DNA from: Pecten maximus | Taxonomy: Eukaryota | NCBI RefSeq assembly: GCF_902652985.1 | Contig: NC_047018.1 | Span: 30,132,001-30,196,000, forward strand | Length of the DNA stretch: 64,000 bases | Reading direction: 5' to 3' | Part shown: in pieces, positions 28,392 to 60,782 of the stretch | How the letters are laid out: each line of letters begins with the position of its first letter | Position numbering within the stretch: the first letter of the stretch is position 1 | Position numbers and translations under genes: made by a program | The notes under the pieces: model-generated | Databases searched by the model: none | The model's input: the letters and a program-made list of their open reading frames with translations, nothing else | What the model was told of the DNA's origin: nothing

Positions 28392-31047
28392 TTTTTCTTT
28401 GCGACGGATGTAAATAACTGCGTCACGTGACAAGCCATGTGACCTTTTCGGCTTTCTCCGTAAGCAACCGAGCGTGATATTGTTTACAATGTAAACAATG
28501 TTCCGACCCCGAAAATATGTACAAAAACACCCAACTTGACGGTGTAGCCGCTTGTATCGCTTAATTATGGGTATATCTTATTATTCAAAGGCCGAATTCT
28601 TCAATTCCTGAGGTTGATATCTAAGGTAATAGTCCCTTTAACACTGGCCCTGCTTGGCGGGTCTACCTGCGAATCCAAGTGTTCCCAGAATTTACATCCA
28701 TATCCACTACCGAACTAACCGTTAGTAAAAAGAAACCCAAATTATATATGGCGCGGACTCTTATTTTGTCCTAATCTATATTTTCATTATTCTTACACTT
28801 GTAATTTTCTTTCACTGATGAAATTTCGATAATTACTTAATTTCTGAAATCCCATCCCTAAGTCTACCTAGTGTCCTATCTTTATCTATGGGACAACATT
28901 TCCTCGTTCTCAACGTGTGTTTGTGTATGAATTACGATTGTATTGTACATGTATACATTTATGAGATTTAAAAAAAAAACACAATTTTACTAATTAAAAT
29001 CGATCAGATTGCTGTGCGCCGTTTTAGGACCATATCATGTGTAAATGGCTGTGTCTACATCCCTTAGTTTCGATTTCTTTGTGTTCACGAGAAATACAGA
29101 CCTACTTCCTCGTACCAAATACATACATGTGTATTTATATTGATATTAATTACTCTTAGTCCTTATTTGGCGTAAATTAATTTTCGTTTCATTATATTTT
29201 TTTGAAGTATAACTTAATATTCGTACTATTCAGATTAATCATAATTGTCATTTAGGGACAAACTGATGTCGCCAATAGATTCAACCACATTACACAGCGG
29301 AAATAGCAAGTATACTGAGGTTAGTACAGGGTATTTTTAGACTCAAGTCTAAAAATAAAAAGCTCTGTATAGCCAAAAATATCATAACTTAATTTATATT
29401 TGGACTGATATTAAAGATCTGATATAAAATATACACATAACTTCCTTATATATGATACAGCGTTTTTATAACACACGTGCTGATTACCTAGCATGTATAA
29501 TGTATGTATATGTTAATTAGCTTGGCGATGACGGACAGGTCTACGATCGATTTATTATGTAACCAATAACTTCACGGAACTTTTGAACTGGGTCCTAGTT
29601 TCCGGTATGATGACACAACACACTGTACAGTAAACACTACAATTTAACTAAAATTTGTAACCCTTTGAAAACTCTCTGCATCGTATTTCAGGAAATTCGT
29701 TTATTCTGATTTCAAGATTTCCTTTTATTTTTTTTCAGTAGCTCGATTCTGAAATAAATTAATATTTTTATTATCATTTCATAATATTCAGTTTGAAACT
29801 GTATTATATAAAATTAATGCACATGTAATTCTAATATCCAATATTCCTTCAAGAAGGAAAACACAGAATCTTAAAAAGAGACGTTTCGGCCTGGTGTTTT
29901 CTGTGTTTATCGTGGTGAGGGCAATCCATTTGAAACAGGTGTTATTTTTAACCATATGACATCAATCTTTTTCTGCCATTAAAGTACATGTATGAATTTG
30001 AATTTTACTAAAAATATGCCACTGCTACTGTGCATAATTTTATCGTGATCAATTTACTTTCAAATATAATACCGATACACGAGTCACGTGTACTCTACAG
30101 GATGTAAAACAAAACTTTACAAAGTCGTGTCTTGATTCCCCAGACATATAGCTCTAATCTTTCATTAAAACATGTTCAGTTTATGTTTATGGACAATAGA
30201 GCTTTACCTGATAAATACAATATTTCCCTTTCTATTTATGATGTGTATCTGGGTCATGACTGCAGGGGTCGTCCAGTACAATGTACGCTGATACCTTATA
30301 TTAGACTATTGATCTCAAGTAGTATCATAATTATGTATGTTAAATCATTTTAGTTTATTTATGTATCTATTTATTTTATTTATATATTTATTCATTTATG
30401 TAAATGAATGAATGAATTTATTTATTTAATAACATTTATTTATCTCTCAAATCGTTAATTCCTTCATAACTAGATTCCCAATACTGTACCATGAACTCTC
30501 ACTTTTGTACTTCTATCCCAGTAATCACGTCTATTGGCTTGGTAAGCCTGCCCATAGCAGATCTAGATACCTACCATCAGTCCCACTCTCGATGTAATGG
30601 TCGGGTATCTATACTAAAATCTAGATTTATCACCGACACGACTGACACCATCGATATCCCCCACGAACACACGGGTTATCACCTATGAAATATTACATAA
30701 ACAAATAAAGACCATAAGCCCAAACTAAATAGCTCCTGTTGAGATAGGTGGTCATAAATCCAGGTTTGATACAAAATGTTCACTGTTATTTCTTCATTGG
30801 AACTCATAGTATTGTCATGGACGCCATGAACTTAAAATTCACACTAGGAAACTTCCGGTTGATCGATTCCGAATTCACGACCTTGACATGTTATTTCCGG
30901 TTCATCGCTGTGTACGGCTTATTTTTGTTTTTTGTTTTTTTGTTTACATGAGATTGATATAATCGAAAAATTGTTTTGAAACAATAGATGTCGATAAAAT
31001 GCTGTAAACTGTCATGCATGTGTTTGTCTCGCTGTTCAAGTACATTT

Positions 31048-31254
31048 TTTATGACATCTCTGTCTTGTACACGAGCTAGGTGACCACAGCTAGTTTGCTG
31101 TTAAGAAACACTAGAAATTGATAATGAAGACATAATATGTGTTGAAAAGGTCATTTATTAATGACAAATCAATTTCAGATATAAAGATATACCCCCAAGT
31201 TATAAATTAGAGAAATTATGACTATAACAGCAAAGATGGGGTAAAAAATAGGCA
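31048..31254 (-). repeat. Split direct repeat B2 (207 bp)
   Basis: Matches 31808-32014 (offset 760); carries a minus-strand AATAAA at ~31154-31159. Confidence 0.95.
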
Positions 31255-31428: not shown

Positions 31429-31812
31429 AAATCAAAAGTGTTAAAAAACTTCCATCAGTGGAGATAAACTTTTACACTTGATTTTCCCAATGGAGGTGAC
31501 GCTACTGAGGGTCAATCTCCTCTGTGATAGGTCCGGTGGCTGGGCTACGTGGCTGCTGATTGGCTGACCAATCACACGCTTCTATCCCTTAAGCCAAAAT
31601 GACCAGAGGTCAGTCAAGTCCTGGGAATTTTCCATCACGTGGCCCAGACATGGACCTCCTTCTTGACCCCTCAATGTTAGCCCATTTACATAAAAACCAG
31701 AACAATGGGAGATGCGAGTGGTGCCAATGCCCCTCTCAACATATAATAAACAAACAATTACAGACTGACATAAATGTATTTATTTATACAGATATAAATA
31801 AATGTTATTTAT
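31429..31812 (-). repeat. Split direct repeat A2 (384 bp)
   Basis: Matches 39020-39403 (offset 7591). Confidence 0.95.
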
Positions 31813-32014
31813 GACATCTCTGTCTTGTACACGAGCTAGGTGACCACAGCTAGTTTGCTGTTAAGAAACACTAGAAATTGATAATGAAGACATAATATGT
31901 GTTGAAAAGGTCATTTATTAATGACAAATCAATTTCAGATATAAAGATATACCCCCAAGTTATAAATTAGAGAAATTATGACTATAACAGCAAAGATGGG
32001 GTAAAAAATAGGCA
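31808..32014 (-). repeat. Split direct repeat B1 (207 bp)
   Basis: Matches 31048-31254; overlaps A2 by TTTAT (31808-31812). Confidence 0.95.
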
Positions 32015-32421
32015 CTGATGACCTAGTCCAGATATTGTATAGAATGAATATATCTAGGGCAAGGTCATCGCCCCATCCAAGGTCACCAAGCTCGAGTAAG
32101 TGAGATAGTTGATATTTTCCTGATACCGATGATAGGAAATAGGTTATCAAATGACCAGAAGAATTAATGGATATATTTTTGATAAGCTCAAATGATTTGA
32201 ACCCCATGATATAATATGACCGAATGTACACAGGCAGAAACAGTTCGTGCACTGTGACATGATCACATGAGTTACATAAAACAACATGATACAGGTCGCT
32301 CTGTCAGATAACATAAAGCTTTCGTAAATAACACAAACTGATGTGGACTGAACTGACCTTCCTCAAACTAATATAAGTAACCGCGGAGCTTGCCAAGTTA
32401 ATAATAAATTTAAACAACAAT

Positions 32422-33108
32422 GTTATAACTAGAGGAAGCAGGCAGTACTGACCTTCCAATTATAACAAAATATTAAAATAATGTATACAAGATATTGAAA
32501 ATTTCAATAACAAGAACCGTTACAACTCTAGGAAGCAGGCAGTACTGACCTTCCAAAAACCAAGTGGCAAATAATAGACATAAAAACTGCAAATATAAAT
32601 TGACCAACAATGTTACAACTTAAGGAAGCAGGCAGTACTGACCTTCCCATCATAACAAAGTAACAATATATACACATAATAATGAAAACACAAAATTCTC
32701 AAAACAATGTTACAACTTGAGAATAACACAGTACCAATATATACACATAATAATGAAAACATAAAATTCTCAAAACAATGTTACAACTAGAGGAAGCAGG
32801 CAGTACTGACCTTCCCACCATAACAAAGTATCAATATATACACATAATAATGAAACATAAAATTCTCAAAACAATGTTACAACTAGAGGAAGCAGGCAGT
32901 TCTGACCTTCCCATCATAACAGAGTATCAATATATACACCTAATAATGAAAACATAAAATTCTCAAAAAAAAAAATGTTACAACTAGAGGAAGCAGGCAG
33001 TTCTGACCTTCCCATCATAACAAAGTATCAATATATACACATAATAATGAAAACAGAATTCTCAAAAAAAATGTTACAACTTGAGGAAGCAGGCAGTACT
33101 GACCTTCC
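32422..33108 (-). repeat. Array of conserved 36-bp hairpin cores with ~57-65-bp AT-rich spacers in the Ngaro 3' region
   Basis: GTTACAACTAGAGGAAGCAGGCAGTACTGACCTTCC-like cores at 32422, 32519, 32612, 32780, 32876, 32977, 33073; partial core at 32709. Confidence 0.92.
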
Positions 33109-33198
33109 AACTCGTTCAATTCTAATGACAAGATGCAGACCAATGGACAGATGAATTCATGTTCAGAAAAATAACTATAACCTGATCTTTTATCCGTA

Positions 33199-34161
33199 TT
33201 ACTTGAATATACTGATACGAATATACGAGCGAACTGCATCAGACTTCCAACGACCATACTTCTGCAAAATAGATTGCGGAACACCTAGCTGTGTAGCCGT
33301 AGTGGCAGCTCCGATTCTGAAGGAATGACCTTTATATACTTTTGTGTCAAGTTTTAAAAATTTCAAAACTGATTGAAGAGATTTGCAAAAGAAGGAATAT
33401 GTAACAGGGGCACCATCAGCAAATTGAAATAATGGACCTGTGCTATGTTTGGTTGATTCAAGGTATTTGCGTAATGCTGATACTGGGCAGTAAGTCTTGT
33501 CTGCTTTAACAGGGATTTCCAGCGTTACAGGGTGATTGTCACAATGTTTGAAATTTGTGATTTTGACAGTCATACCTTTAAGTAGGGAAGTATGGTTGTC
33601 ATACAAAAACGTTATATCACTTGTCTGTAAAATAGTAGACACCGAGTTATTATGGTTCAGGGTAATTTCGCCAATGCGCAAAAATGCGTGAAAAGCCAAA
33701 AGAAACATAGCTCTGCAAAGACAAGCCTTAAAGTGCGGGAAAATTGTTTTACCAGTAGCATTGATTATATTTTCCAAAATATCTAAAGTGATTGGAAGTC
33801 GACAATCTGAAGAGCACCTACTGTTTTGGACACCTTTTAGCAATTTTTTTATATAAAATAGGTCAGTGGGATCTTCCATGTTTTCCATCTTGTGTATGAA
33901 ACTGATAGCTGACATGTATGAATAAATAGTGGCCGAACTTAGATTCTTTGCGAACAGGTGTACAATAAATTTTGCCAACACATTCTGTGGAATAGGAAAA
34001 ACAACCGGTGTTGAAAAGTTTGACCTATGAAAATCCATGAATGAAGATAACACGCGCTTATAACCAGATCTGGTGGATGGTGCTAGGGAGGCTGCCAAAA
34101 GCTGAGATGTTAAAGAGTCGTAAGAAGAGGAGGTATCGAGACCGGGTGCGGATCGAGCCAC
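33199..34161 (-). CDS. Tyrosine recombinase (YR) of the Ngaro element
   Basis: 320 aa; FLRIGE (Arg), GHSFRIGAAT (HxxR) and GRWKSDAVRSY (Trp, Tyr) catalytic motifs. Confidence 0.95.
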   Translation of the reverse strand: MARSAPGLDTSSSYDSLTSQLLAASLAPSTRSGYKRVLSSFMDFHRSNFSTPVVFPIPQNVLAKFIVHLFAKNLSSATIYSYMSAISFIHKMENMEDPTDLFYIKKLLKGVQNSRCSSDCRLPITLDILENIINATGKTIFPHFKACLCRAMFLLAFHAFLRIGEITLNHNNSVSTILQTSDITFLYDNHTSLLKGMTVKITNFKHCDNHPVTLEIPVKADKTYCPVSALRKYLESTKHSTGPLFQFADGAPVTYSFFCKSLQSVLKFLKLDTKVYKGHSFRIGAATTATQLGVPQSILQKYGRWKSDAVRSYIRISIFK

Positions 34162-35939
34162 GGTGCGATTTTGTGCGCCTCCTGAAATTGGAAACGAGAC
34201 AATTTGTCAGCCACCACATTAGTGTAACCCGGGATATGTTTAGCACGAAAATGTATGTTAAACTTTAATGTGGATAACACCAGTCGCCGGACCAGTTTCA
34301 TCAAAATGGCATCCTTAGATGATAATTTGTTGATGATATCTACTACTGCTTGGTTATCACAAAGAAACAGAATCCTATGATTTGCTAACTTTTGACCAAA
34401 CATCTCCAAAGCAATCACAATTGGAAAGAGTTCTTTCACTGTTATGTGTGTAACCCTCAATTCATCTGTCCATTGCCCTGTAAACCAACTGGCACCAAGA
34501 ACAGCCGCATAACCACCATGTACCCCAGCTGCATCAGAATACATTTTGATTGTATCTGACGATATCCATTTGTCAAATAAGAAAAAAGCCTTCCCATTGA
34601 AATATTCCAAAAACAAAGACCAAGCCTGTAGGTCAGCTCGAGCCTCCTTATTAAGCCTAATAAAATGATGAGCGAGTTTAACGCCCTTAGTTAGGTCAAT
34701 AAGACGTCTTAAAAAGGCTCGACCGGGGACGATAATCACACAGCAGAAATTCAGGAAACCAATAATTTGTTGTAAATGCTTTAGTTGTATACGCCTTTTG
34801 TTTTTAAAGGAGTCTATCAGACTATGGGCCTTAAGGAGTTTTTCCTCTGGGAGACTAGCTGTCATAGATTTAGAATCTAACTGTATGCCATAAATGACTA
34901 TTACTGTAGAAGGCCAGTGGGTTTTATCCTGTTTTATCGGAATACCCAGGAATTCTGTGGTTTTCAGAAATATCTCTAAGTCAGACCTGCATTTTGAGGA
35001 AGAGGGAGGACCTGCAAAGAAGAAGTCGTCTAACAGGTGTGACATGAAGGCTTTGTGCTTGTTAGTCATGTACCATTGGAGAGCGCAACTCAGTTTTTCA
35101 AAGAGTTGGCATGATGATGAACACCCCATGGGTAGGCACTTATCAAAATAATACTTGTTATCCCACATAAAACCCACATATTTGTATTGTGACGGATGGA
35201 TGGGAAGAAGCCTAAATGCATCCTCAATGTCAGCTTTTGCCATTAGGCAGCCTTTGCCAAACCTCTGTACTAAGGCAATAGCATGCTCAACAGTTTCATA
35301 TTGAACAGCAGAAAATTCTGTGGGAATTAAATTATTGACTGAATTACCATCTGGATATGACAGATTATGTATTAATCTAAATTTTCCCAGTTCTTTCTTA
35401 GGAATTAAACCTAAAGGAGAAATAATCATGTTATCGAAGGGTAAAGATTCATACGGACCTGCTATTCGACCTTTTAGGCGTTCCTTTTCTATTTTTTCCA
35501 AAACTCTTACAGGGTTATCGACAGCTGATTTATGATTGGTTGGGATAGTTTTTGAAGGAACGACATCCCCTGATATGCCTAAATGAAAACCTATCGAGAA
35601 ACCCTCGTATAAGAAATCTGTGAGCACTTGATCGTAGTTAAGAAGAAGACTTCTCATGCGCTTTGCGTGAATTGGGGTTGGTAGAGTTAACATTATTGTG
35701 TCTAAGCTGGGACTGGTTGATAGGCCAGTGGCAGTTCTTGGTGGCAATTTTTTTGCCGCACACACAACACTCGTGTTTGAATCTACAGGAAGATCCATGC
35801 TTACAGGTCCCTTCAAGTGCGAATCCCCAACAATAGCCATAGGGAAGTTTAGGCTTTTGCTGGAACTTCCCTCGAAAGGGCTGAGAGTTCTGGGAAAAGG
35901 GCTTGGCTTGATTGGGTTTTCCATATGGTGTTTGTACAT
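34110..35939 (-). CDS. Pol: reverse transcriptase + RNase H of the Ngaro element
   Basis: KFRLIHNLS, KADIEDAFRLLP, LPMGCSSS, HLLDDFF (RT); YSDAAG, KELFPI, LCDNQA, ADKLSR (RNase H); overlaps gag and YR; true start uncertain. Confidence 0.95.
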   Translation of the reverse strand: MYKHHMENPIKPSPFPRTLSPFEGSSSKSLNFPMAIVGDSHLKGPVSMDLPVDSNTSVVCAAKKLPPRTATGLSTSPSLDTIMLTLPTPIHAKRMRSLLLNYDQVLTDFLYEGFSIGFHLGISGDVVPSKTIPTNHKSAVDNPVRVLEKIEKERLKGRIAGPYESLPFDNMIISPLGLIPKKELGKFRLIHNLSYPDGNSVNNLIPTEFSAVQYETVEHAIALVQRFGKGCLMAKADIEDAFRLLPIHPSQYKYVGFMWDNKYYFDKCLPMGCSSSCQLFEKLSCALQWYMTNKHKAFMSHLLDDFFFAGPPSSSKCRSDLEIFLKTTEFLGIPIKQDKTHWPSTVIVIYGIQLDSKSMTASLPEEKLLKAHSLIDSFKNKRRIQLKHLQQIIGFLNFCCVIIVPGRAFLRRLIDLTKGVKLAHHFIRLNKEARADLQAWSLFLEYFNGKAFFLFDKWISSDTIKMYSDAAGVHGGYAAVLGASWFTGQWTDELRVTHITVKELFPIVIALEMFGQKLANHRILFLCDNQAVVDIINKLSSKDAILMKLVRRLVLSTLKFNIHFRAKHIPGYTNVVADKLSRFQFQEAHKIAPWLDPHPVSIPPLLTTL

Positions 35940-36858
35940 GATTTATGCGCATGGCGGCCATACGCCATAATTCGTCATGTACTATGTTCCAGTTGACTGG
36001 TTGAGTACGACGCAATTTTCTAAAATTTTCATCATAAAATTTGACAGCTTGAAATCCATAATTTTGATTTAACAATCTCATAGTGTTTCCATACTTCAAC
36101 AGATGAGATATCTTTTCTGGAAACTTTTCCGTATAAATTGACACGAAAATGTCAAAGGCCTGATTCCATTGACTGATGTTTGCAACTGATTTTGCTTTGG
36201 AACTAGCTGTCAAGCCAAGCCCATTACCCTCATAGGTCAACTTTAGTTTTGTTTGTTCAGATTCATAGGACGGAAAAACTAGCTCACCAAATTCAATAAA
36301 TTCGTTTTCCATAATTTTCGCTCTGATTTTGTCAGAGACATTGTACCCTAAAGGGAGAGATGAGGTACATGTTAAAAAAGCCTCATTTGCAGGTCTATTA
36401 GCAATGTCTTCACCTTCAAACATTCTTTGAATGGCAGGTAAACCATTAATGTCCTCCTGATTATGTGCAGTTGATTGGTGTGGGACAGCCAGCTGGTCAA
36501 TGTCACGAGCACTATGCGTTTGTTCTTCACTAGATTCATTTTGAGCCGTGGATGGCCCACTAAGTCCCTTTGCACTCAGGACCTGGTTCACAACATCAGC
36601 CACTATGGTTGCTGTTTCCTGTCGTACTTGTTGGACCACCTGACTTACAATATCTGCGATGTTGACCCCTGACAGGGGAGATTGGACAGGTCCCTGTAGC
36701 TGGTCAGCTGGTGGAACAGAGTTTTCTTCATTGTACATCGCCTCAGGAACTGGTGGTGTGGTAATTCTTGTCGCTTTGCGTGGTGTGGAGGACTTTTTGG
36801 ACTTTGATGTTGTCATCGCTACACGTTGACGCTTTTTGGGAGGTGGTTTGCCAGACAT
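35638..36858 (-). CDS. Gag-like ORF1 of the Ngaro element
   Basis: First ATG at 36858 (MSGKPPPKKRQR, NLS-like); KIRAKIMENEFIEFGEL and W..AF.IF..IY...YDENFR motifs of DIRS/Ngaro ORF1; C-terminal Cys/His cluster CWGFALEGTCKHGSSCRFKHECCVCG. Confidence 0.88.
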   Translation of the reverse strand: MSGKPPPKKRQRVAMTTSKSKKSSTPRKATRITTPPVPEAMYNEENSVPPADQLQGPVQSPLSGVNIADIVSQVVQQVRQETATIVADVVNQVLSAKGLSGPSTAQNESSEEQTHSARDIDQLAVPHQSTAHNQEDINGLPAIQRMFEGEDIANRPANEAFLTCTSSLPLGYNVSDKIRAKIMENEFIEFGELVFPSYESEQTKLKLTYEGNGLGLTASSKAKSVANISQWNQAFDIFVSIYTEKFPEKISHLLKYGNTMRLLNQNYGFQAVKFYDENFRKLRRTQPVNWNIVHDELWRMAAMRINHVQTPYGKPNQAKPFSQNSQPFRGKFQQKPKLPYGYCWGFALEGTCKHGSSCRFKHECCVCGKKIATKNCHWPINQSQLRHNNVNSTNPNSRKAHEKSSS

Positions 36859-37374
36859 CTTGACTTTAGTCTGTCCCACAGTGACTACCCTGTAAAATTT
36901 AGATTGTGACAATAACAGTGTTTGTGAATAAAAACCCAGTGCAAATGTAAATATTTGCCCTGTGCGAAGCCTAAAAGACAGCCCAAGTTATACATATATA
37001 CTATCCCGTGTTTAAATAATTGATTGATCTGTGGAATTGGCCATGATAGCCTGTTTACAGTAATGGTATTATTAAATGGATACGCACATTGATGCAAACA
37101 ATCAATATAAATTTATATGGGATTTAAAACCTAAATTGAGAAACCACTAGAAAAATTCCATAATGATCTCCATTTTTAACATTATATTGTAGTTTGATGA
37201 ACTAAATCACCTTAATAAATAATGTTACCCTGTTATATATAGCAGCACATGTATAAATCATGGCTTAAATATAATATACAGGCATATTGTAGTCCAAGTT
37301 GGAATCTCTGAAACATACTCGTACCGAATACAGACCTATATGACAAGCGCATTAATACATTATTATAATTAAAG

Positions 37375-37820
37375 CAAACAATAATGGCCAGCAAACAGAC
37401 CCATGAATATTGATTATATCCAAACAGACAATAATGGACTATGAATAGCCCCATGCATGCTGAATATATTCAAACAGACAATAATGGCCTAGGCCCATGA
37501 ATGCTAAATAAACAGAATAATAAACAAGCAAACAATAATGGCTATATTAATTGACCCATGAATGTTGAATAAAACCAAGCAAACAATAATGGCCTATCAC
37601 AGACCCATGAATGCTTATAACTATATTCAAAACAGACAATAATGGCCTAGCCCATGAATGCAGTAAGAAACATAGCAAACAATAATGGTCTATTACTATA
37701 TAAAGACCCATGAATGCTGACAACATCAATCAATATGTATTGCGTAAATTAAATAGGCTGTATCCTAACCTGGCAGAGCCAACAATTATGTTCGAACAAT
37801 AATGGTCCATATTCAGACCA
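37375..37820 (-). repeat. Array of 7-8 two-motif hairpin units upstream of gag
   Basis: Conserved CARACAATAATGG and CCCATGAATG separated by variable segments; period ~45-60 bp. Confidence 0.88.
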
Positions 37821-38218
37821 GTTTACCAAAATGCAGTACCTAATATCATGTCCCACGTACAATGTAAATCCACACAGATCTATTTCCAAGATCTATACCC
37901 AATTTCAATAATAATCTGTTAAAGTTAAATAATGACAAAAGGTATTCGTCGGAATGGTTAGAATTACAAGGCTAATATATATAGATCCTAACACTGTACT
38001 GCTATCATAAACATTAGGTATTTTGTACACAATAATAAATCGCGATTATCTCCCTTAGACCATGAAGATCGCCACATCGCAAGATCTGTGCTAATTATAC
38101 GCAGTTAATGAAGATGGAGCATAGAAAGCCAACTATAGGACAAAATTTCCACTGTTAGTGACCACTTAACTCGATTAACTTGCTACGGGACTTACAATTT
38201 ACTCATGTTGGCACTGTT

Positions 38219-38803
38219 TCACTGTAGCATTATCGTCTTCGCTTGAGAGCCTATCGCCGATCTGACGCTCCTCGCATATTTTTTCATGCCCATCGAATTT
38301 AAGTGAACGTTATCTCTCGCGTAGAGTGCCCTAGAGTCTTGCCAGAAACCTCGATGTTTCCAAAACACAATAGTGATCCCATCTACCGAAGATGCTAGCG
38401 AATTGTTGACTACAGGAAGTTTTGTGTTGTACTCGCCATTGTCGTTAAAACGAGGCAGTAACTGTCCGATTACAACTCTCCGAACCGAGGGCGCGTTCGA
38501 AACACGGTACGCCAAGTTCAGTATGGCATTTGCTAGATCAACTGGATGACAGCTAGGCTTTGATAAATCGTTGCCTCCAGCTTGTATGAACACAATATCG
38601 GGAGGATAGGACGTATATATATCCGAAGGAAGTTGTAAACACTTTGGGCCTGGGTATACAGTACCTCCACCGACACCAGTACACGAAACTTGAATCACGT
38701 TTCCGTCAAAGTTGAAATTATTAAAATCATTGTCAGGAGTAGACGCAAAACAGCCTAATCGACGTACAAAAGAATGTCCTAGCACTAAGGCAAGCAAAAC
38801 CAT
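38219..38803 (-). CDS. SGNH/GDSL-family hydrolase carried by the Ngaro element
   Basis: 194 aa; block I VLGHSF (Ser), block II GVGG, block III QAGGNDL, block V DNVH (DxxH); lies inside the A1-B2 boundaries. Confidence 0.9.
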   Translation of the reverse strand: MVLLALVLGHSFVRRLGCFASTPDNDFNNFNFDGNVIQVSCTGVGGGTVYPGPKCLQLPSDIYTSYPPDIVFIQAGGNDLSKPSCHPVDLANAILNLAYRVSNAPSVRRVVIGQLLPRFNDNGEYNTKLPVVNNSLASSVDGITIVFWKHRGFWQDSRALYARDNVHLNSMGMKKYARSVRSAIGSQAKTIMLQ

Positions 38804-39019
38804 TCTTAAAATCTATATGAGGCGGGATATTCCGATCGCCGTATATAAATACCTCCGTAGGCTAGCTAGGCCTAACAGGCATATAAAAACCGGATTGAAT
38901 TTACCTTGTAGCAGCGAGATATCCTCCTTATGTAACCACCAGGGTCTGTCTTACAGATGGACGTAAAACACAAATCGAAAAGTTCGATTTCCACTTCAAA
39001 TAAAAGAAAATCAAAAGTC

Positions 39020-39403
39020 AAATCAAAAGTGTTAAAAAACTTCCATCAGTGGAGATAAACTTTTACACTTGATTTTCCCAATGGAGGTGACGCTACTGAG
39101 GGTCAATCTCCTCTGTGATAGGTCCGGTGGCTGGGCTACGTGGCTGCTGATTGGCTGACCAATCACACGCTTCTATCCCTTAAGCCAAAATGACCAGAGG
39201 TCAGTCAAGTCCTGGGAATTTTCCATCACGTGGCCCAGACATGGACCTCCTTCTTGACCCCTCAATGTTAGCCCATTTACATAAAAACCAGAACAATGGG
39301 AGATGCGAGTGGTGCCAATGCCCCTCTCAACATATAATAAACAAACAATTACAGACTGACATAAATGTATTTATTTATACAGATATAAATAAATGTTATT
39401 TAT
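39020..39403 (-). repeat. Split direct repeat A1 (5' terminus, probable promoter)
   Basis: Matches 31429-31812; contains the dyad GATTGGCTGACCAATC with CCAAT boxes on both strands. Confidence 0.95.
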
Positions 39404-40194
39404 ATGTGAGATTTCAAGTGACACCGTGTAGGAACTGGTCGGGGCCACTACATCAAGATATTCAGAGTACTATGTTGAGTCCACGGGGTACGGTGTAACG
39501 ATTGTCACTTCAAAAGCAATGACATAAAAATGATATAATTCAATTAAGTAAGTCAAAACTTCCACACAGTTTAATGGTTTTATTTAAAAGTTGTTTTTTT
39601 TTTTTTTTTATTTTTTTTTTTTTTTATTTTTAATTTTTGAAGACATTTTTAATACATGAATAGATAATAACCTCATGCACACATACATACCCTCAAACAT
39701 ACACACATCAGTTCCAGAATGTATGGTTTGCCATTATATATCATCATGATCAGAATAACCTCAAGATCTTTCATTGTCTTAAAAGCAACCTCATCCGCAT
39801 CATCATACTCATCATCACCATCGTAATCACATCATCATACAAGTCAACATACTCTCATCATCATAGTATCATCACCATAATCTCATCATACTCATCATAA
39901 TAATTAATCATCATTCTAATCATCTTCATAATATCATCATCATTAACTACAAAGGTAAATGCATGTACATAGGAGACCATACAAACTCCTATAAATGTGA
40001 ATGTACTCTGATAGACATACATGTACATACACATATTCAGTTTCCTGGTAGCCTGATCAATCCTATTGAGGGCTCAGTTTCTGTGTTGGTCATATCAACT
40101 CTATCCACGTCTACCGAGTCATCAGCAGGATTGACCACGCTCCACACTGATAAGTACCTCTTACACACACACACACACACACACACAATTGGAA

Positions 40195-40376: not shown

Positions 40377-43300
40377 TTATAAGTCGGAGATTTTCCCCCA
40401 GTTTTTCCACTCTTTTTCAAACTTTTCCCTACAGGCTTCTCCTTTACTATATGCAATAAATTTTTGCGTCTCATGATATTGTTTAAGAGCACTTATCAGA
40501 CCATTGATGTTTAAAGACTTGTGAAAACATCGCATTTTATAAATATATTGTTTGATAACAAGGAGAATTTCATTGTCAACTTTACAGTTATTAGGATTTT
40601 GAGATAGTAGTCCAAAAATAAAAGATTGCTTATTGAAATTAAATGGGATAAAAAGAGCATCTAATAAAATTCTAAGACTTTCTAATAAGTTCTGAACTTC
40701 ACAACATTCCCACAAGATATGTATGATAGTTTCAATTTCAGAATTGCATAAAGTACAAAGAGGAGAAATTACTAGCTGTGATTTGAAAAGAAAAGAGTTT
40801 GTGGTTAAGATGTGATGATTAACTCTGTACTGAAACCACTGAAGTTTGGTATTTTTTGTAGCAATAAAGGGAATCTTGAATATCCTAGTCCAAGTTGTAT
40901 CATTCAAGTTAAAAACTTCATTCCACTTCTTTTTACCTGTAGGAACATTGTTATTTTTAATAAAAATATTATAGAAATCCTTTGAGCCTTTTCTGTGTTT
41001 CATGAATAATTCTATGTTCATTGGCAAACAAGGATATGGGATTTTTAATACAGGAATTTCTTTTGAAGACAAAAACTTTCTTACTGCTGACAAAAGGCTA
41101 TGATACTGAAGAAAATTAGTTTTTACTTGATATGTGCGAGTTACTTCTTGGAAAGTGTGAAAACATCCAGTATTATGATCTGATATCAAGTCATTTATCA
41201 TAATTATGTTTTTGTTATAGAAATTCTTAAAAAATACTGATTTCTGGCCAACAGTTATATCTTTATTAAACCATAGTGGTGTTTTTAGGATAGAATCTTT
41301 CATAATGCTATTTTTTTCGATTGATAGATTTAAATTGTACCAGGCTTTAAACACATCAGCCCAGAATATATTACTGCAACTTTTTGCACATTTCTGCACA
41401 TAATCATTGCCACAATTGGCTAGCAAATCAATGTTAATGTAACTTTTCAAAATAGCTTGCCACTTGGCTGTAGTTTGAAAAAGCCTTCTCACCCAAGATA
41501 ATTTTAATGAATCTATAAAAGCTTTTATATTTATCATTTTTAAACCACCATTTAGATAATCTTGAACAATAAATTCTCTTTTTACTTTATCTGTTTTGCT
41601 ATTCCACAAAAATTCAAAAAGAATGGAATTTAGTGTTGAAGTAAACTGTTCATTAGGACTAGGGAGTGAAATAAAGAGATGGTTAAATGTGAAATGAGGA
41701 GCGATTTAATAATATGGATTCTACCGATAGGGGTCAAAACTCTTCTTTTCCAGGTTTTAAGAAAAGACTTTAATTTAATTAGTTTTTTATCGAAATTCAG
41801 TTTTGGTATCTCATGTAGGTTGACATGAAATTCAATCCCCAATAGCGTAAATTTGTGTTTGCCCCATTGCAAATTAAGATCTGGTAGGAAAGTATCGTCA
41901 CTGAACTTTTTACTACCTATCCAAATTACCTGTGTTTTAGAAACATTAATTTTAAGACCAGAAATTTTAGCGTATAAATTAAGTTCATTAACTGATTCTT
42001 TAAGAGATATCTCTGAGCCGTTCAATGCCAAAGATGTATCATCTGCATATTGTGAGAGTAGGATCGGACTTCTATTGACTTCAATGCCTGTTATATTTTT
42101 ATTATGTCGTAATTTGATAGCTAATATTTCTGCACATAGGATAAAGATATACGGGGCTATCGGGTCACCCTGTCGGCATCCCCTTTTAACATTGAAGAAT
42201 GAAGACAAGTTTCCTCCCTGAATGATTGCGGCACTGACATTTTTGTGAAATACATTTATCCAATTTCGTATGTTTTCCCCAAAACCAAAAAATTTTAATA
42301 CTTTTTCAATAAACTCCCATGAGACTGAATCAAAGGCTTTTTGGAAATCTATCATAAGCAGCATCCCTGGAATATTATTATCCTCTGTATATTTCATTAA
42401 ATCATAAACTAACCGTGTATTTTCCCCAATATATCGTCCAGCGAGAAAACCTGTCTGATCCTTATCTATAATTTTGTCTAAAACTGTTTTTATTCTATGT
42501 GTAATTGTTCCAGATGCTATTTTATATATCACAGTGAGTAATGTAATTGGTCTCCAGTTTTTTATAAAATGCCTTGGTTTGTCTCCCTTTGGTATGCAAG
42601 TCACAATTCCACGACGTTGAGAAATAGATAATTCACCTTTTTTGTACCCTGAATTTATAGATCTTACCACAAAATTACCCAAATATTTCCAAAAACATTT
42701 AAAGAACTCAGCTGTAAAACCATCTATGCCAGGACTCTTGTTGTTTTTCATGCTTTTTAATGTTTTTCCTGCTTCTTCTAGAGTTATAGGACCTTCTAAC
42801 TTTTCAGCATCTTGTCTATTTAGTTTACAAACATTACAATCTTTTAACAAATCTTGCAAGTGAACATCTTCTATTTCATTTTCATCATTATAAAGATTTT
42901 CATAAAAACTGCGAACTTCATCTAAGATTTCATCTTGCTTTGTAATAACTTTTCCATCATCTAATTGCAATTTAGGAATTATTTTCGAGGTAAAATTTCT
43001 ATTTTCCAAATTAAAAAAGTAGTTAGTTGGTTTCTCACCCTCTTCAATCCATTTAGCTCTTGATCTTACTATACTGCCTTTAATTCTATGTTGTCTTATT
43101 TTTTCTAATTCTTTCTTTTTAGATTCTAATTGTGCAAAATTAATATCATCTTCTTCAAGTTTTTGAATAGCTGTTTTTAAATTATTCTCATTAAGATTTC
43201 GTTGTTTCTTGAGATAGGTTGAATAAGAAATTGTTTTGCCTCTGATGTGTGTCAATAAGGTTTCTAGAAAGAGACAATCATCAATAGTAAACTGAAGGTC

Positions 43301-44172
43301 TGCATCTGGTATGCTTGATATATTGAAAAGATTATATAAAGGCAGACAGTTTATTCTTTTAGATTCCAAAATACATTCCTTAACAAGTTTTAGATAGTTT
43401 TGATCATGTAGTAAACTGTTATTAAATTTCCAAATACCTTTACCTGTTTTGAATTCAGTAAGTTTAAGAGATATTGATGGGAAAGAGTGGTCTGATCTGT
43501 ATCCTGTTTCTATGTTTGATTTTACTGTATTTGAAAGTAGGTTTTCAGTCAGAAGAAAAAAGTCTAGACGGGCCTGTTTTTTGGGGTTACTTCTCCTCCA
43601 GGAGTACCTTTTTAAATTCTCGTGATGTTCCCTAAAAATATCAATAAGAGAGAAATTATCAATAATTTCCAAAACTTTGTCCCTAGCTTTAGGATTATTG
43701 ATATGCTTATAACTATTATCATAGTCTAAACTGGGGTCTAAGACTAGGTTAAAGTCGCCACAGATGATAACATATTTATTGTTAAAGTCTTCAACTGTCT
43801 CAGATATAAGATTATAAAATGCAGGGTTATCTTCATTTGGACCATACAAGTTAATGAGTGTTATGTTAAAATTTTCAATGCCAATTGCTAGTGCAATAAA
43901 ATTACCATTAGGTCCTCTTCTCTCTTTAAATATTTTAAATTCAAAATTATTTTTAAATAAAATGGCAACACCCCTCGAGTTGGATTTGTAAGAACTGAAA
44001 AAACACTGGTAACCCCACTGATTTCTAATGATACCTTCGTTTTCTTCAGTAAAGTGTGTATCTTGTAAACATATAATATTGCATTGCATTGATCGAAAGT
44101 AAGAAAAAATATCAGTTCGTTTAGTTTTTTCTCCAATGCCGCGACAATTTGCTGATATAATCGAAATGCTAT
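40377..44172 (-). CDS. L1 ORF2 (APE endonuclease-RT-CCHC), one frameshift near 41688; N-terminus probably supplied by splicing
   Basis: ISIISANCRGI, LQDTH, GDFN, RLDFF, SDH (APE); NWRPITLL, RQGDPIAP, QYADD (RT); CTLCNSEIETIIHILWEC; a 1-nt shift restores FNHLFISLPSP and joins the two listed ORFs. Confidence 0.9.
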
Positions 44173-45239
44173 CTACGGTATAAACACAAAGCTATCAAAT
44201 TAACTGTCCCCATCCCGAGAACAAAGAAAGAAAGAGAAAGAGACAGCGAGTAGATAGAAAGAAATAGACTGTATAAAGACATAAAATACATACGTGAGGT
44301 CAACGACCTAAAGACCACTGCCAACCTAACATACTACACACGTTTTCTTTCTGAAACAGCATCTACACCACCATATTGTTGTCAGACAAGAGTTATCTTA
44401 CCGGAAGTTGTATAATACATTTCCGGACTTGGTGTAATCCGGAAAAGAGATATCGTATGCATTTTATATAAAGTACCAATATTTAATGTGTTAACGTTGT
44501 AGGTAACCCTACAGCTGTCACTGATTATTTAACACCGTTGTACATTGTAACTTTGACAGGATTTTGCACAAGAACAATAAATACAACCCATACTGATTTT
44601 TTTCCCTTGAAAATTAGATAAAACATATACAATATAGACCTAGATGAATATAAACCAGAAAAATATATACATTGTAGCTACTCTTATGCCACAAACAACC
44701 AGTATAATGTATGTACATGTACGTAGTCAAACAGACTGGCAAGAAATTCGAGCATGTACTGAATAAATCTTATATCTAAAAACAGTGGATAAATAAAAGA
44801 GAAACATTGGTATTTGAAAGAAGTGTACAAAAAAAACAACAACAAAAAAACAAACAAAAAAACAGGGCAAGTATGTTCTGCCAGATGTTACTGATTATAT
44901 AATGGACAGACTCCAAAGAGATTAATGCACTTTTAGATGTATATTTCCACATATTGGAATGTGCGTAGAATTTTGAGTAAATAAAGGGGGAAAAAATCAC
45001 AGGCTACATATACAAAAAAGCTACATCTTACCTGGTGTTACAGAAATGTATGTCCCGTAATCACATGGAAAACACGCCACACACTAAGAAAAGACACACA
45101 TACACACGCGTACACATTATATTACCAATTAAATTCCAAACACTGTCAAAAGTTATCGGTATTAACCAGGAGGAATGAATTCCTGGCGGCACCGTGGTGC
45201 CAAAGTTCCATACCGATATATTATCCATTAAAATTAAGT

Positions 45240-46010
45240 CTACTGGAAGTTGGAATCATTCTTCAAAAAACTTTCGGTGAGCCGAGTACCCAGTGAAAGT
45301 CTCCTCTTTTTTCCATTTGATAGTATGGCAAAAAGCTTTCCGTCGATACTGAAAGAGTTTTTGACACAGGGAAGTTTGTAAGCATCCGCCAGTATCCTTT
45401 GATTGGTCCTTGTGAGATCCTCGAAAATAGTAATACCAGATTTTTTCAACTTGTACCGGGATTTTATCACTTCGTTTCGTTTGAAACGGCGCACAAATTT
45501 CACAATGATATTTCTGGGTCTGTCTTTGTTAAATTTTCCTAGTCTGTGAGCAATGTCAATGTCAGAACTGGTAAGCTGCACATCAAGTTTTTCATTCACA
45601 AACTTTACAATTTTCTTAGCACAGTCTTCAGCAGTTTCCGAGTCTGATGAGTCTTCCAGGCCATTTATTCTGAGTGAGTTTTTCCTCCCATGCTGCTCTA
45701 AATCATTACTCCTCGCCTCCATGATTTCATTCGAATTTTGCAGTTCAGCAACTTTTCCCTCAAGACTGCTAACATTCTGGCGTAAATTTTCATTTTCTGT
45801 CTCAAGATCAAAGACCCTTCCTTTCAGCTCCTCTACCAGTTGTTTGTTCTCTGCTCTGATAGCTTCCTTTAGCTTGTTGTATCTTTCCTCCATGTACTGC
45901 TTAGTAACTACATTGGACAGCATTTCAGTTATTTCCTCTAGTCTGTCATCAATGGTTTTTTCCGATCCTGACTTTGTACTTCCATTTCTATGACGATTGC
46001 CGGTAGGCAT
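45240..46010 (-). CDS. L1 ORF1 (coiled coil + RRM + CTD)
   Basis: 256 aa; heptad-rich region followed by RKNSLRINGL, DIDIAHRLG, PRNIIVKF, IFEDLT. Confidence 0.9.
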   Translation of the reverse strand: MPTGNRHRNGSTKSGSEKTIDDRLEEITEMLSNVVTKQYMEERYNKLKEAIRAENKQLVEELKGRVFDLETENENLRQNVSSLEGKVAELQNSNEIMEARSNDLEQHGRKNSLRINGLEDSSDSETAEDCAKKIVKFVNEKLDVQLTSSDIDIAHRLGKFNKDRPRNIIVKFVRRFKRNEVIKSRYKLKKSGITIFEDLTRTNQRILADAYKLPCVKNSFSIDGKLFAILSNGKKRRLSLGTRLTESFLKNDSNFQ

Positions 46011-46519
46011 ATTTACTCCTTTGTATAGTAGATAATACAGTTCATAAAGTGAATATAGTCAGTGTAGTCCAGGTAAATCTAGGTAAGTGTAGTGTTGGTT
46101 AACAGTGTTCACCAGCTGGGTGTCAATCCATTGTTCAAATTTCACATGTCCAAAATCAACATTTTTAGAAAAAAAGATCCAGAGATATTTTTACGAGGAT
46201 GGTGACGGTTCACTCGCACATTATTATGCCAAAAAAGATCATACGCAGTTTCCAATAAATCGATGAAAATAGGTTTTTTGTCAGAGCTCCAAAAAAGGTG
46301 AACTACCCAGATCTGTGTGACCTTGACCTTCTCTTAAAAGTTGTTAACGTTTAAACATATTTTATTTGTTTCAAAAGCATTTAAGGATTAGTTATTACAA
46401 CATTACTAAGGCCTTCTCCACATACATAATATATAGATTGAGATATAGCATAATGTGATCACAATGAATACCATTTTATTACGAAAATAATTCAAACAGA
46501 TATATGTCTTATCATATTA

Positions 46520-50963: not shown

Positions 50964-51170
50964 AGGATTTAATCATCTTGATTTGGTCGATTTCATGGGG
51001 TCATGAATTGAGTTGCTCTTGAGACAAATTTGATGAACTGCTTTTATTTGGTCGATTTCATGGGGGTCATGGATTGAGTTGCTCTTGAGACAAATTCAAC
51101 ATCAAATTTGTCTCAAGAGCAACTCAATTCATGACCCCATGAAATCGACCAGATCAAGATTCAATCCCTA
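50964..51170. repeat. Fold-back element with one arm duplicated
   Basis: TGGTCGATTTCATGGGGTCATGAATTGAGTTGCTCTTGAGACAAATT twice in direct orientation, then its reverse complement (~51105-51152). Confidence 0.85.
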
Positions 51171-56365: not shown

Positions 56366-57047
56366 TCGAGGAAAATGCTGTCTTTGGTGCAGGTAATTTC
56401 TCTACCAGAGCTGGCGTTGTCCTTTCCTTTAGGTTAAAACCAAGTATAGTCAGTATAGCAGTTACAATTGATATAAGTTTGTTTTCACAATTATTGAGTA
56501 ACACACATACAAACCTAATTGTACCTATATCTAACAATGAGTATGTTTTAAACGAACCGTTTCCTTGGATCTATTTCAATTGAAATACTATACCCACGGA
56601 GAACACATGTTAGACGGAGTATAATATAGTATATCTGAAGCAATTTCGTCTTTGAAATAGTCCGTTATGTTCGCGTGTATATAGGAATATTAAGTGTTTT
56701 AATTTCAGCTTTCGTTATAGCGTGATCAAGATTACAGATGAGAACAACACTTTAGACGTCAATCAAAGCCCATTAAAGTACAATATTGACCAACGTGAGA
56801 GGGCAAATGACTTCATACTGAACAAACGATTTCTATTTATAGACTTCTAATGTTCTTGTACATGTACTTTGCCTGTACTTTCAGATTTAATCACTCAAAT
56901 ATCGTATTCACCCCTGTCCCTGTATATTGTATACCACATCTGAAGGTTATGACTTCAACTTTCTGCCCAAGGTGAAGGTTGATTATATATATATATGTAC
57001 TACACTTTGTGTAATCGTTTAACAGTACAACAATACATTCATTTCAT

Positions 57048-60000
57048 ATCTACGACACCCCTTCGTGTAATACACTTAGCTATGACACCCCTTCGTGTAG
57101 TACACTTAGCTACGACACCCCTTCGTGTAGAACACTTAGCTACGACACCCCTTCGTGTAGTACACTTAACTACGACTCCCCTTCGTGCAGTACACTTAGC
57201 TACGATACCCCTTCGTGTAGAACACTTAGCTACGACACCCCTTCGTGTAGTACACTTAGCTATATGACTCCCCTTCGTGTAGTACACTTAGCTACGACTC
57301 CCCTTCGTGTAGTACACTTAGCTACGACACCCCTTCGTGTAGAACACTTAGCTACGACACCCCTTCGTGTGGTACACTTAGCTACGACACCCCTTCGTTG
57401 AATACACTTAGCTACGACACCCCTTCGTGTAATACACTTAGCTACGTCTCCCCTCCGTGTAGTAAACTTAGCTACGACACCCCTTCGTGTAGTACACTTA
57501 GCTATATGACTCCCCTTCGTGTAGTACACTTAGCTATATGACTCCCCTTCGTGTAGTACACTTAGCTATATGACTCCCCTTCGTGTAGTACACTTAGCTA
57601 TATGACTCCCCTTCGTGTAGCACACTTAGCTACGACACCCCTTCGTGTAGCACAATTAGCTACGACACCCCTTCGTGTAATACACTTAGCTACGACTCCC
57701 CTTCGTGTAGTACACCTAGCTACGACACCCCTTCGTGTAGTACACTTAGCTATATGACTCCCCTTCGTGTAGTACACTTAGCTATATGACTCCCCTTCGT
57801 GTAGCACACTTAGCTACGACACCCCTTCGTGTAGTACACTTAGCTATATGACTCCCCTTCGTGTAGCACAATTAGCTACGACACCCCTTCGTGTAATACA
57901 CTTAGCTACGACTCCCCTTCGTGTAGCACACCTAGCTACGACACCCCTTCGTGTAGTACACTTAGCTACGACTCCCCTTCGTGTAGTACACCTAGCTACG
58001 ACTCCCCTTCGTGTAGCACACCTAGCTACGACACCTCTACGTGTAGTACACCTAGCTACGACTCCCCTTCGTGTAGTACACTTAGCTACGACACCCCTTC
58101 GTGTAGCACACTTAGCTATGACACCCCTTCGTGTAGTACACTTAGCTACGATACCCCTTCGTGTAGTACACTTAGCTACGACACCCCTTCGTGTAGTACA
58201 CTTAGCTACGACACCCCTTCGTGTAGTACACTTAGCTACGACACCCCTTCGTGTAGTACACTTAGCTACGACACCCCTTCGTGTAGTACACTTAGCTACG
58301 ACATCCCTTTCGTGTAGTACACTTAGCTACGACACCCCATCGTGTAGTACACTTAGCTACGACACCCCTTCGTGTAGTACACTTAGCTACGACACCCCTT
58401 CGTGTAGTACACTTAGCTACGACACCCCTTCGTGTAGAACACTTAGCTACGACACCCCTTCGTGTAGAACACTTAGCTACGACACCCCTTCGTGTAGTAC
58501 ACTTAGCTACGACACCCCTTCGTGTAGTACACTTAGCTACGACACCCCTTTGTGTGGTACACTTAGCTACGACACCCCTTCGTGTAGTACACTTAGCTAC
58601 GACACCCCTTCGTGTAGAACACTTAGCTACGACACCCCTTCGTGTAGTACACTTAGCTACGACACCCCTTCGTGTAGTACACTTAGCTACAACACCCCTT
58701 TGTGTGGTACACTTAGCTACGACACCCCTTCGTGTAGAACACTTAGCTACGACTCCCCTTCGTGTAGCACACCTAGCTACGACACCCCTTCGTGTAGTAC
58801 ACTTAGCTACGACTCCCCTTCGTGTAGTACACCTAGCTACGACTCCCCTTCGTGTAGCACACCTAGCTACGACACCTCTACGTGTAGTACACCTAGCTAC
58901 GACTCCCCTTCGTGTAGTACACTTAGCTACGACACCCCTTCGTGTAGCACACTTAGCTATGACACCCCTTCGTGTAGTACACTTAGCTACGACACCCCTT
59001 CGTGTAGTACACTTAGCTACGACACCCCTTCGTGTAGTACACTTAGCTACGACACCCCTTCGTGTAGTACACTAAGCTACGACACCCCTTCGTGTAGTAC
59101 ACTTAGCTACGACACCCCTTCGTGTAGTACACTTAGCTACGACATCCCTTTCGTGTAGTACACTTAGCTACGACACCCCATCGTGTAGTACACTTAGCTA
59201 CGACACCCCTTCGTGTAGTACACTTAGCTACGACACCCCTTCGTGTAGTACACTTAGCTACGACACCCCTTCGTGTAGTACACTTAGCTACGACACCCCT
59301 TCGTGTAGAACACTTAGCTACGACACCCCTTCGTGTAGTACACTTAGCTACGACACCCCTTCGTGTAGTACACTTAGCTACGACACCCCTTCGTGTAGTA
59401 CACTTAGCTACGACACCCCTTTGTGTGGTACACTTAGCTACGACACCCCTTCGTGTAGTACACTTAGCTACGACACCCCTTCGTGTAGAACACTTAGCTA
59501 CGACACCCCTTCGTGTAGTACACTTAGCTACGACACCCCTTCGTGTAGTACACTTAGCTACAACACCCCTTTGTGTGGTACACTTAGCTACGACACCCCT
59601 TCGTGTAGAACACTTAGCTACGACACCCCTTCGTTGAATACACTTAGCTACGACACCCCTTCGTGTAATACACTTAGCTACGTCTCCCCTCCGTGTAGTA
59701 CACTTAGCTACGACACCCCTTCGTGTAGAACACTTAGCTACGACTCCCCTTCGTGTAATACACTTAGCTACGACACCCCATCGTGTAGTACACTTAGCTA
59801 CGACACCCCTTCGTGCAGTACACTTAGCTATATGACTCCCCTTCGTGTAGTACACTTAGCTACGACTCCCCTTCGTGTAGAACACTTAGCTACGACACCC
59901 CTTCGTGTAGTACACTTAGCTACGACACCCCTTCGTGTAGAACACTTAGCTACGACACCCCTTCGTGTAGAACACTTAGCTACGACTTCCCTTCGTGTAG

Positions 60001-60782
60001 AACACTTAGCTACGACACCCCTTCGTGTGGTACACTTAGCTACGACTTCCCTTCGTGTAGTACACTTGGCTACGACTCCCCTTCGTGTAGAACACTTAGC
60101 TACGACACCCCTTCGTGTAGAACACTTAGCTACGACTTCCCTTCGTGTAGAACACTTAGCTACGACACCCCTTCGTGTGGTACACTTAGCTACGACTTCC
60201 CTTCGTGTAGTACACTTGGCTACGACTCCCCTTCGTGTAGAACACTTAGCTACGACACCCCTTCGTGTAGAACACTTAGCTACGATACCCCTTCGTGTAG
60301 TACACTTAGCTACGACACCCCTTCGTGTAGTACACTTAGCTACGACTCCCCTTCGTGTAGTACACTTAGCTACGACTCCCCTTCATGTAGTACACTTAGC
60401 TACGACACCCCTTCGTGTAGTACACTTAGCTACGACTTTACTTCGTGTAGTACACTTAGCTACGACACCCCTTCGTGTAGTACACTTAGCTACGACTCCC
60501 CTTCGTGCAGTACACTTAGCTACGACTTCCATTCGTGTAGTACACTTAGCTACGACACCCCTTCGTGTAGTACACTTAGCTACGACTCCCCTTCGTGTAG
60601 TACACTTAGCTACGACTTCCATTCGTGTAGTACACTTAGCTACGACTCCCCTTCGTGTAGTACACTTAACTACGACTCCCCTTCGTGCAGTACACTTAGC
60701 TACGATACCCCTTCGTGTAGTACACTTAGCTACGACACCCCTTCGTGTAGTACACTTAGCTACGACACCCCTTCGTGTAGAT
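57048..60782. repeat. 30-bp satellite array, ~124 copies
   Basis: TACGACACCCCTTCGTGTAGTACACTTAGC units; the long ORFs here are artefacts. Confidence 0.98.

Follow-up and report, generated by a model that had tools for sequence, protein, structure and literature searches.

The minus strand of the window, a 64,000-nucleotide stretch of Pecten maximus contig NC_047018.1, carries an intact split-repeat tyrosine-recombinase (YR) retrotransposon with the order hydrolase-gag-pol-YR. Two 5′ donors, with first intron bases at 38904 and 38195, share one gag acceptor and probably yield a gag message, an esterase-first message and the unspliced genome, and the switch is likely a choice between these two donors and not between two acceptors. 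That the longer intron, of 2015 nt, is real can be held with high confidence. Three forms are found in sequencing-run contigs, namely unspliced, joined from donor 1 to the acceptor and joined from donor 2 to the acceptor. Altogether, four independent joints fall on GT..AG ends, two in run contigs of the element's own family and two in genomic copies from other families, while splicing in RNA is observed for the element's own family only.

Architecture and classification of the element

The element is a Ngaro-type YR retrotransposon (order DIRS) with a variant layout (Table 1). It has split direct repeats in the arrangement A1...B1 A2 B2, the gag-like, RT/RNase H and tyrosine recombinase ORFs, and no methyltransferase, the pol frame ending 27 residues past the RNase H match (Pfam). 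The hydrolase, an optional feature that is placed after the YR in the hydrolase-bearing Ngaro-like elements covered by the available parts of PMC9210276, PMC7192593 and PMC6681497, is found here 5′ of gag. Two other classes were considered and excluded: the PAT-like class, defined in the available part of PMC7192593 by split repeats plus a methyltransferase, because Pfam finds no methyltransferase in the element, and the DIRS1-like class, with inverted terminal repeats and an internal complementary region, because the ends carry direct repeats only. Given that A1 equals A2 over 384 nt and B1 equals B2 over 207 nt, the insertion is young. Among the element ORFs, Pfam returns RVT_1 at 37.5 bits and an RNase H-like match at E = 2.5e-4, and the YR frame matches Phage_integrase at E = 3e-5, under the Pfam cut-off. 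The spacer between hydrolase and gag is non-coding, AT-rich and 1.36 kb long.

The hydrolase has the catalytic Ser, Gly, Asn and Asp-x-x-His of SGNH/GDSL enzymes, and S11, G46, N78, D164 and H167 are invariant in 12 of 12 aligned copies; judged by its sequence, it is a putative esterase. A PDB sequence search gave weak GDSL matches only (best E = 0.016).

Elsewhere in the window, a near-complete LINE (40377-46058, minus strand) lies 1 kb upstream of A1, with a coiled-coil ORF1 and with endonuclease, RT and zf-RVT split over two frames near 41630-41705. An array of a 30-nt unit in more than 110 copies, with plus-strand open frames, occupies 56900-60900, and nested inverted repeats with 61-nt arms at 98%, possibly a small DNA transposon, are present at 50975-51160.

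Table 1. Features of the element, listed along its minus strand from the 5′ repeat; positions are those of the window.
Feature	Position	Strand	Remarks
A1 split direct repeat	39020..39403	-	384 nt, identical to A2
Leader exon 1, portion seen joined to gag	38905..38993	-	X5 contig record 13; contains no ATG
Donor 1, AAG|GTAAAT	38899..38907	-	first intron base 38904; rank 1/375 GT; used in joint
Long intron	36890..38904	-	2015 nt, GT..AG; encloses whole hydrolase ORF; X5
Upstream ORF, six codons	38862..38882	-	sole ATG between A1 and hydrolase start
Two AG sites before hydrolase ATG	38805..38814	-	38813 and 38805; candidate acceptors
SGNH/GDSL hydrolase ORF	38219..38803	-	194 aa; Pfam Lipase_GDSL 34.8 bits, cut-off 23.6
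ATG 13 nt beyond hydrolase stop	38196..38206	-	joins gag frame after donor-2 splice, 14 extra residues
Donor 2, ATT|GTAAGT	38190..38198	-	first intron base 38195; joint in X7 and X18; kept in copy L007
Short intron	36890..38195	-	1306 nt, GT..AG; non-coding spacer only; X7 and X18
Imperfect ~50-nt repeats within spacer	37359..37733	.	repeat analysis
Shared gag acceptor, TTTTACAG|G	36889..36905	-	end of both joints
Gag-like ORF	35638..36858	-	406 aa, basic N-terminus, weak CCCH finger
RT/RNase H ORF	34110..35939	-	609 aa; stops after RNase H, without methyltransferase
Tyrosine recombinase frame	33199..34206	-	335 aa; first Met is residue 57; candidate phase-1 acceptor 34182
~96-nt repeat array, 3′ region	32406..33131	.	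repeat analysis
B1 repeat	31805..32014	-	207 nt identical to B2
A2 repeat	31429..31812	-	384 nt, same as A1
B2 repeat	31045..31254	-	begins 174 nt after A2

Splice sites and joints in sequencing-run contigs

Splice sites were scored with a generic matrix of textbook frequencies and ranked among the sites on the element strand between 39420 and 33000. An earlier, sequence-only reading had proposed that one leader expresses either the hydrolase or gag by means of a single donor, CAAG|GTAAAT, and two acceptors, TTTTAAG|A-ATG before the hydrolase and CTAAATTTTACAG|GG before gag. All three motifs are where it placed them: the first intron base of the donor is 38904, the AG of the hydrolase-side site ends at 38805 (implied intron, 100 nt), and that of the gag-side site ends at 36890, 31 nt upstream of the start codon of gag at 36858 (implied intron, 2015 nt). 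The donor had been put just inside A1, which is wrong, as A1 spans 39403-39020 and the donor is 115 nt downstream. The gag acceptor, described as strong, is good but not outstanding (rank 25 of 340 AG sites); its AG is kept in all three copies that cover the site, and a candidate branch-point run, CTAAAT, lies directly before its pyrimidine tract. Donor 2 is positioned 24 nt beyond the hydrolase stop.

Part of the element is contained in 20 of 24 listed runs, and four runs from four studies (X1, X5, X7 and X18) were compared with 33200-39410; these data are assembled contigs, not raw reads, with one contig per run behind each joint. The proposed removal of the hydrolase ORF by a ~2-kb intron that joins leader to gag is borne out by one of the four: an X5 contig, at a depth of 21.6 and with 90 nt on the short side, skips exactly 38904-36890 (2015 nt, GT..AG), alongside unspliced intron contigs at a depth of 7-8. 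X7 and X18 each hold one contig that skips 1306 nt from the donor at 38195 to the gag acceptor. The isoform that retains the hydrolase uses this second donor, which had been missed, and not the proposed 100-nt intron. X1 holds a single unspliced contig (33200-39049, 5850 nt, depth 40), which supports the predicted unspliced RNA. Both joints remove GT..AG-ended segments exactly, as is expected of U2-type introns, with RNA on record for X7 only; for X1 and X5 the tool guesses RNA, and X18 is of unknown kind. The small totals of X1 and X5 (87 and 177 million letters vs a 918-million-base genome) fit RNA, as does the lower depth inside the intron in X5.

The X7 contig additionally jumps from gag (35947) to 32082 without GT/AG, and may therefore derive from a deleted copy with the intron already lost. 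No contig in the four runs ties A1 or the leader to the donor-2 joint in the element's family. Two further runs, X6 and X17, which are outside the joint counts, hold 0.64 of the element words, against 0.649 predicted for donor-1-spliced RNA alone. For another family, L041 (3000-8760), comparison with X5, X2, X7 and X10 gave no splice joint in contigs; those of X5 and X2 run unspliced through its donor 2 and acceptor, and X7 and X10 barely cover it. The X5 depth on L041, 28.9 over gag/pol vs 13.9 over spacer and hydrolase, fits partial splicing but proves nothing, and contigs keep one path, so that minor forms drop out.

Relatives in the P. maximus genome

Protein searches of the genome gave 141 hydrolase and 150 gag matches, and in 47 of 99 oriented loci, picked from these match lists, the hydrolase lies upstream of the gag core. 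Since this layout is so common, annotation that expects a hydrolase after the YR would miss or split such elements. The textbook layout gag-pol-YR-hydrolase is also present (L072-L076, L088, L097 and L109-L119; 17 rows in the tree below), as is a hydrolase-free split-repeat group (L100-L106), and thus three layouts coexist. In a quick RT tree of 52 rows, all from the P. maximus genome and without named Ngaro references, the 3′-hydrolase elements form one branch (support 100) among the 5′-hydrolase ones, apart from seven hydrolase-free rows. This branch is nested within the 5′ type when the tree is rooted on the long branch to the hydrolase-free elements. Four rows (L082, L107, L108 and L061) were called 5′-type by family likeness or as intron-less copies, and no direction of evolution between 5′ and 3′ hydrolase is drawn from the tree.

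Splice-site enrichment was assessed in 22 representative families, each with a hydrolase identity of at most 73% to the nearest other; L079 was left out, being 89% identical to L040, and the donor-1 and pre-hydrolase tests did not include L059 and L062, whose hydrolase ATG is unusable. Compared with spacer windows, higher scores are reached by the top donor in the 120 nt preceding the hydrolase ATG (donor 1), the top donor between -12 and +28 nt relative to the hydrolase stop (donor 2) and the top acceptor in the 50 nt upstream of the basic N-terminus of gag, with p = 5.5e-5 (n = 20), 1.4e-4 (n = 22) and 1e-6 (n = 22), respectively, values that are optimistic because the windows were set after viewing, gag starts were hand-picked by protein motif and the families are related. 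The control 90th percentile is exceeded by donor 1 in 8 of 20 families, by donor 2 in 8 of 22 and by the gag acceptor in 6 of 22, and at least 4 of 22 families (L036, L038, L050 and L062) lack donor 2. Conservation of the splice sites, named earlier as a check on the splicing proposal, is thus found for donor 1 and the gag acceptor, both kept in related families.

Four families (L031/L033, L032, L034 and L041; five loci) have their first in-frame Met 49-80 codons past the gag acceptor. In these, removal of a GT..AG segment of 1767-1948 nt puts the last exon-1 ATG, which lies 13-16 nt upstream of donor 1, in frame through to the gag stop, and in unspliced RNA this ATG opens a short upstream ORF only.

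Two genomic copies have lost introns. L082 matches family L052 at 93-97% but is missing exactly the 1937 nt of GT..AG sequence that run from donor 1 to the gag acceptor and contain the hydrolase; 1 of 17 matches spans the full junction. L061, which is decayed and related to L029, retains its leader, donor 1 and hydrolase and is missing the 722-nt donor-2 intron, together with 2 nt just past the junction. These copies, which were picked for odd spacing so that no rate follows, show that both splices occur and that spliced RNA can be copied back into DNA. The intron-less copies anticipated by the sequence-only reading therefore exist in sister families, but none is present among at least 42 leader and at least 8 gag-5′ genomic matches of the element's own family. 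Its proposal that unspliced RNA serves as the genome agrees with the unspliced form seen in X1; given that spliced RNA has twice been written back into DNA, a spliced RNA may fill this role as well.

Several derivatives are also found in the genome. L066 and L067 are hydrolase-only derivatives of family L040 that have kept the repeats and lost gag, pol and YR, and L063, L065, L068, L070 and L078 are hydrolase ORFs without gag or pol nearby. L015, L018, L019 and L020 are solo A-spacer-B units of ~766 nt, as recombination between A1 and A2 would give. The older copies L009 and L011 carry a ~500-nt insertion in the intron, 40-80 nt upstream of an intact gag acceptor. Five derivatives (L002, L003, L014, L016 and L017) begin or rejoin within ~20 nt at 32074-32095 of the window, a rearrangement or truncation hotspot ~60 nt before B1, and the X7 contig jump to 32082 falls in the same spot.

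Relatives in metagenome contigs

A metagenome contig scan with an alignment of 12 5′-type hydrolases, a query that favours the 5′ type, gave 79 loci (from the best 80 of 146 confirmed), in 40 of which the contig is long enough to judge the order; in all 40 the hydrolase precedes gag/pol. These contigs are inferred to be animal host DNA; the Atlas clusters closest to them are from eukaryotes, most often Mollusca, Cnidaria, Chordata and Annelida. Among 27 distinct loci with 120 nt upstream of the hydrolase, 14 contain a donor that fits the consensus at 6-7 of 7 positions (controls: 4 of 84 windows in the spacer, 20 of 308 on the reverse strand), and nine have the GC-type donor G|GCAAGT vs 0.2 expected, located 37-114 nt before the hydrolase ATG (L124, L130, L133, L139, L142, L148, L154, L170 and L184). 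A clear basic gag start is recognizable in 9 of 14 representatives with gag in view, and by eye, without a control, each of the nine has an AG 1-8 nt upstream that follows a pyrimidine-rich run. Donor 2 is not enriched in the metagenome loci (3 of 28 vs 34 of 285), and it was therefore rejected as a universal feature. Thus, the layout and donor 1, often of the GC type, recur in unrelated metagenome contigs, and donor 2 does not.

Expression of the hydrolase and gag

In the proposed mechanism, one transcript would start in or near A1. With 38 ATGs separating the start codon of the hydrolase from that of gag, scanning ribosomes could not plausibly reach gag on unspliced RNA. Splicing from donor 1 to the acceptor takes the hydrolase out and would make the gag ATG the first start codon after the leader, giving the gag mRNA. 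With donor 1 left unused, the hydrolase would be the first long ORF, after the six-codon upstream ORF, and donor 2 would then remove the AT-rich spacer, a step whose joint is seen in run contigs and whose linkage to a leader comes from copy L061. RNA in which neither donor is used, as in the unspliced contig, would be the full genome. Messages can be degraded when a splice junction lies beyond a limit of 50-55 nt from the stop codon, and with donor 2 within ~25 nt of the hydrolase stop, the junction would remain inside this limit and the message would escape such decay. Donor 1, which is of the GC type in many distant relatives, may be kept imperfect to leave a sufficient share of the RNA unspliced.

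A different role has been considered for donor 2, namely the splicing of a second gag message whose promoter would lie within the hydrolase ORF, with the ATG at 38206 adding 14 residues and the hydrolase coming from unspliced RNA only. Contig pieces start at 38574, 38473 and 38444 in three runs that have no cover over 38608-38815, which may hint at such a promoter, and there is a TATA-like run at 38621; the 38206 ATG is in frame with gag and has an A at -3. The three starts differ by 130 nt, however, and contigs cannot reveal starts; moreover, several ATGs intervene between 38590 and 38206, an ATG before donor 2 is not general among families, and L061, albeit from another family, represents an RNA spliced at donor 2 that extended as far upstream as the A repeat. 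An internal promoter is therefore unlikely to account for donor 2.

The arrangement favoured by the sequence-only reading, one donor with two acceptors, in which a 100-nt intron (38904-38805) makes the hydrolase mRNA, is likewise improbable. Such an intron is of workable length, it would take out the six-codon ORF and with it the sole ATG that separates A1 from the hydrolase start, and the AG at 38805 is kept in all three copies covering the site. Its joint is found in none of the four runs, of which only X1 covers the stretch, unspliced; three of the four lack cover at the site, and the loss of minor forms from contigs could hide it. The acceptor at 38805 nevertheless ranks 211 of 340, which is chance level, while the AG at 38813, 8 nt upstream, ranks 14 of 340. 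Across families, acceptors before the hydrolase are not enriched over spacer windows (p = 0.59, n = 20), with 1 of 20 above the control 90th percentile. Furthermore, four of the 20 families (L025, L036, L048 and L049) lack any AG in the stretch from donor 1 to the hydrolase ATG, this stretch is 26-50 nt long in six families, and the retrocopy L061 keeps its donor-1 region unspliced.

Finally, it is very improbable that the joints reflect deletions in DNA or chance cryptic splicing that does nothing for the element. In favour of this reading, its family includes many deleted derivatives, the X7 contig contains a non-splice jump and L041 lacks a joint. Against it, the four independent joints fall on GT..AG ends, gag in four families has no usable start unless spliced, distant relatives retain donor 1, even in GC form, and none of the at least 8 genomic gag-5′ matches (G000) joins the leader directly.

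With the choice between two donors as the preferred reading, the YR frame may add a further layer. In 19 of 19 families, this frame is opened by a phase-1 acceptor-like site located at the C-terminal motif of RNase H (window 34182), and the codon at this site is CAG in 13 of 13 families vs 48% elsewhere in pol; no joint into the candidate acceptor at 34182 occurs in the run contigs. The top donor inside gag is in phase 1 in 16 of 22 families, a bias not used as evidence because glycine codons alone give it. Taken together, a bolder picture is put forward tentatively, in which a widespread animal YR lineage would practise retrovirus-like splicing in reverse. The esterase would come first, inside the intron of gag, a weak and often GC leader donor would set the esterase:Gag:genome ratio, and donor 2 would protect the esterase message; the leader or gag donors would also feed the start-less recombinase acceptor, and the 5′-esterase layout may be older than the 3′ one.

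Comparison with known systems

In retroviruses and errantiviruses, a leader donor is spliced to a downstream acceptor to generate the subgenomic env mRNA, and the unspliced RNA is the genome. The element turns this scheme round: its core gene, gag, depends on the splice, and the first position is taken by the accessory gene. Two questions on DIRS-order elements are touched by this arrangement, that is, how several overlapping or separated ORFs are expressed from one transcript and what purpose the hydrolase has. It also shows that YR retrotransposons with introns can retain them through an RNA cycle, and the locus offers exact junctions, natural intron-less copies and an intact young element suited to splice-site mutation.

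Plant Ty1/Copia elements produce a spliced subgenomic GAG RNA, and the likeness is that alternative splicing lets one transcript supply both a Gag message and the full-length genome (PMC5580714, in the part available). In contrast, their intron lies after gag and is tied to early termination, whereas that of the present element lies before gag, has two donors and removes an accessory ORF. Accessory ORFs are likewise carried by other retroelements, including the extra ORFs of Ogre and the GDSL esterases of Terminons and LTR elements, for which membrane passage has been suggested as a possible role (PMC6431247). These belong to other retroelement orders, however, and the available part of that source describes no splice switch around an accessory ORF.

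For DIRS-order elements, no function of the hydrolase has been proven according to the available part of PMC9210276. The texts of PMC9210276, PMC3266345 and PMC3783388, without supplements, contain neither 'intron' nor 'splic', PMC10294476 has a single mention of DIRS and Ngaro, and a literature search without supplements found no paper that describes a 5′ hydrolase or native splicing in Ngaro elements. In the available part of PMC9210276, DIRS-53_XT and DIRS-54_XT of Xenopus resemble the P. maximus element in having A1...B1 A2 B2 repeats, gag-like, RT/RH and YR ORFs and an SGNH hydrolase, and in lacking a methyltransferase. They differ from it in that their hydrolase follows the YR, whereas here it stands before gag, inside the intron.
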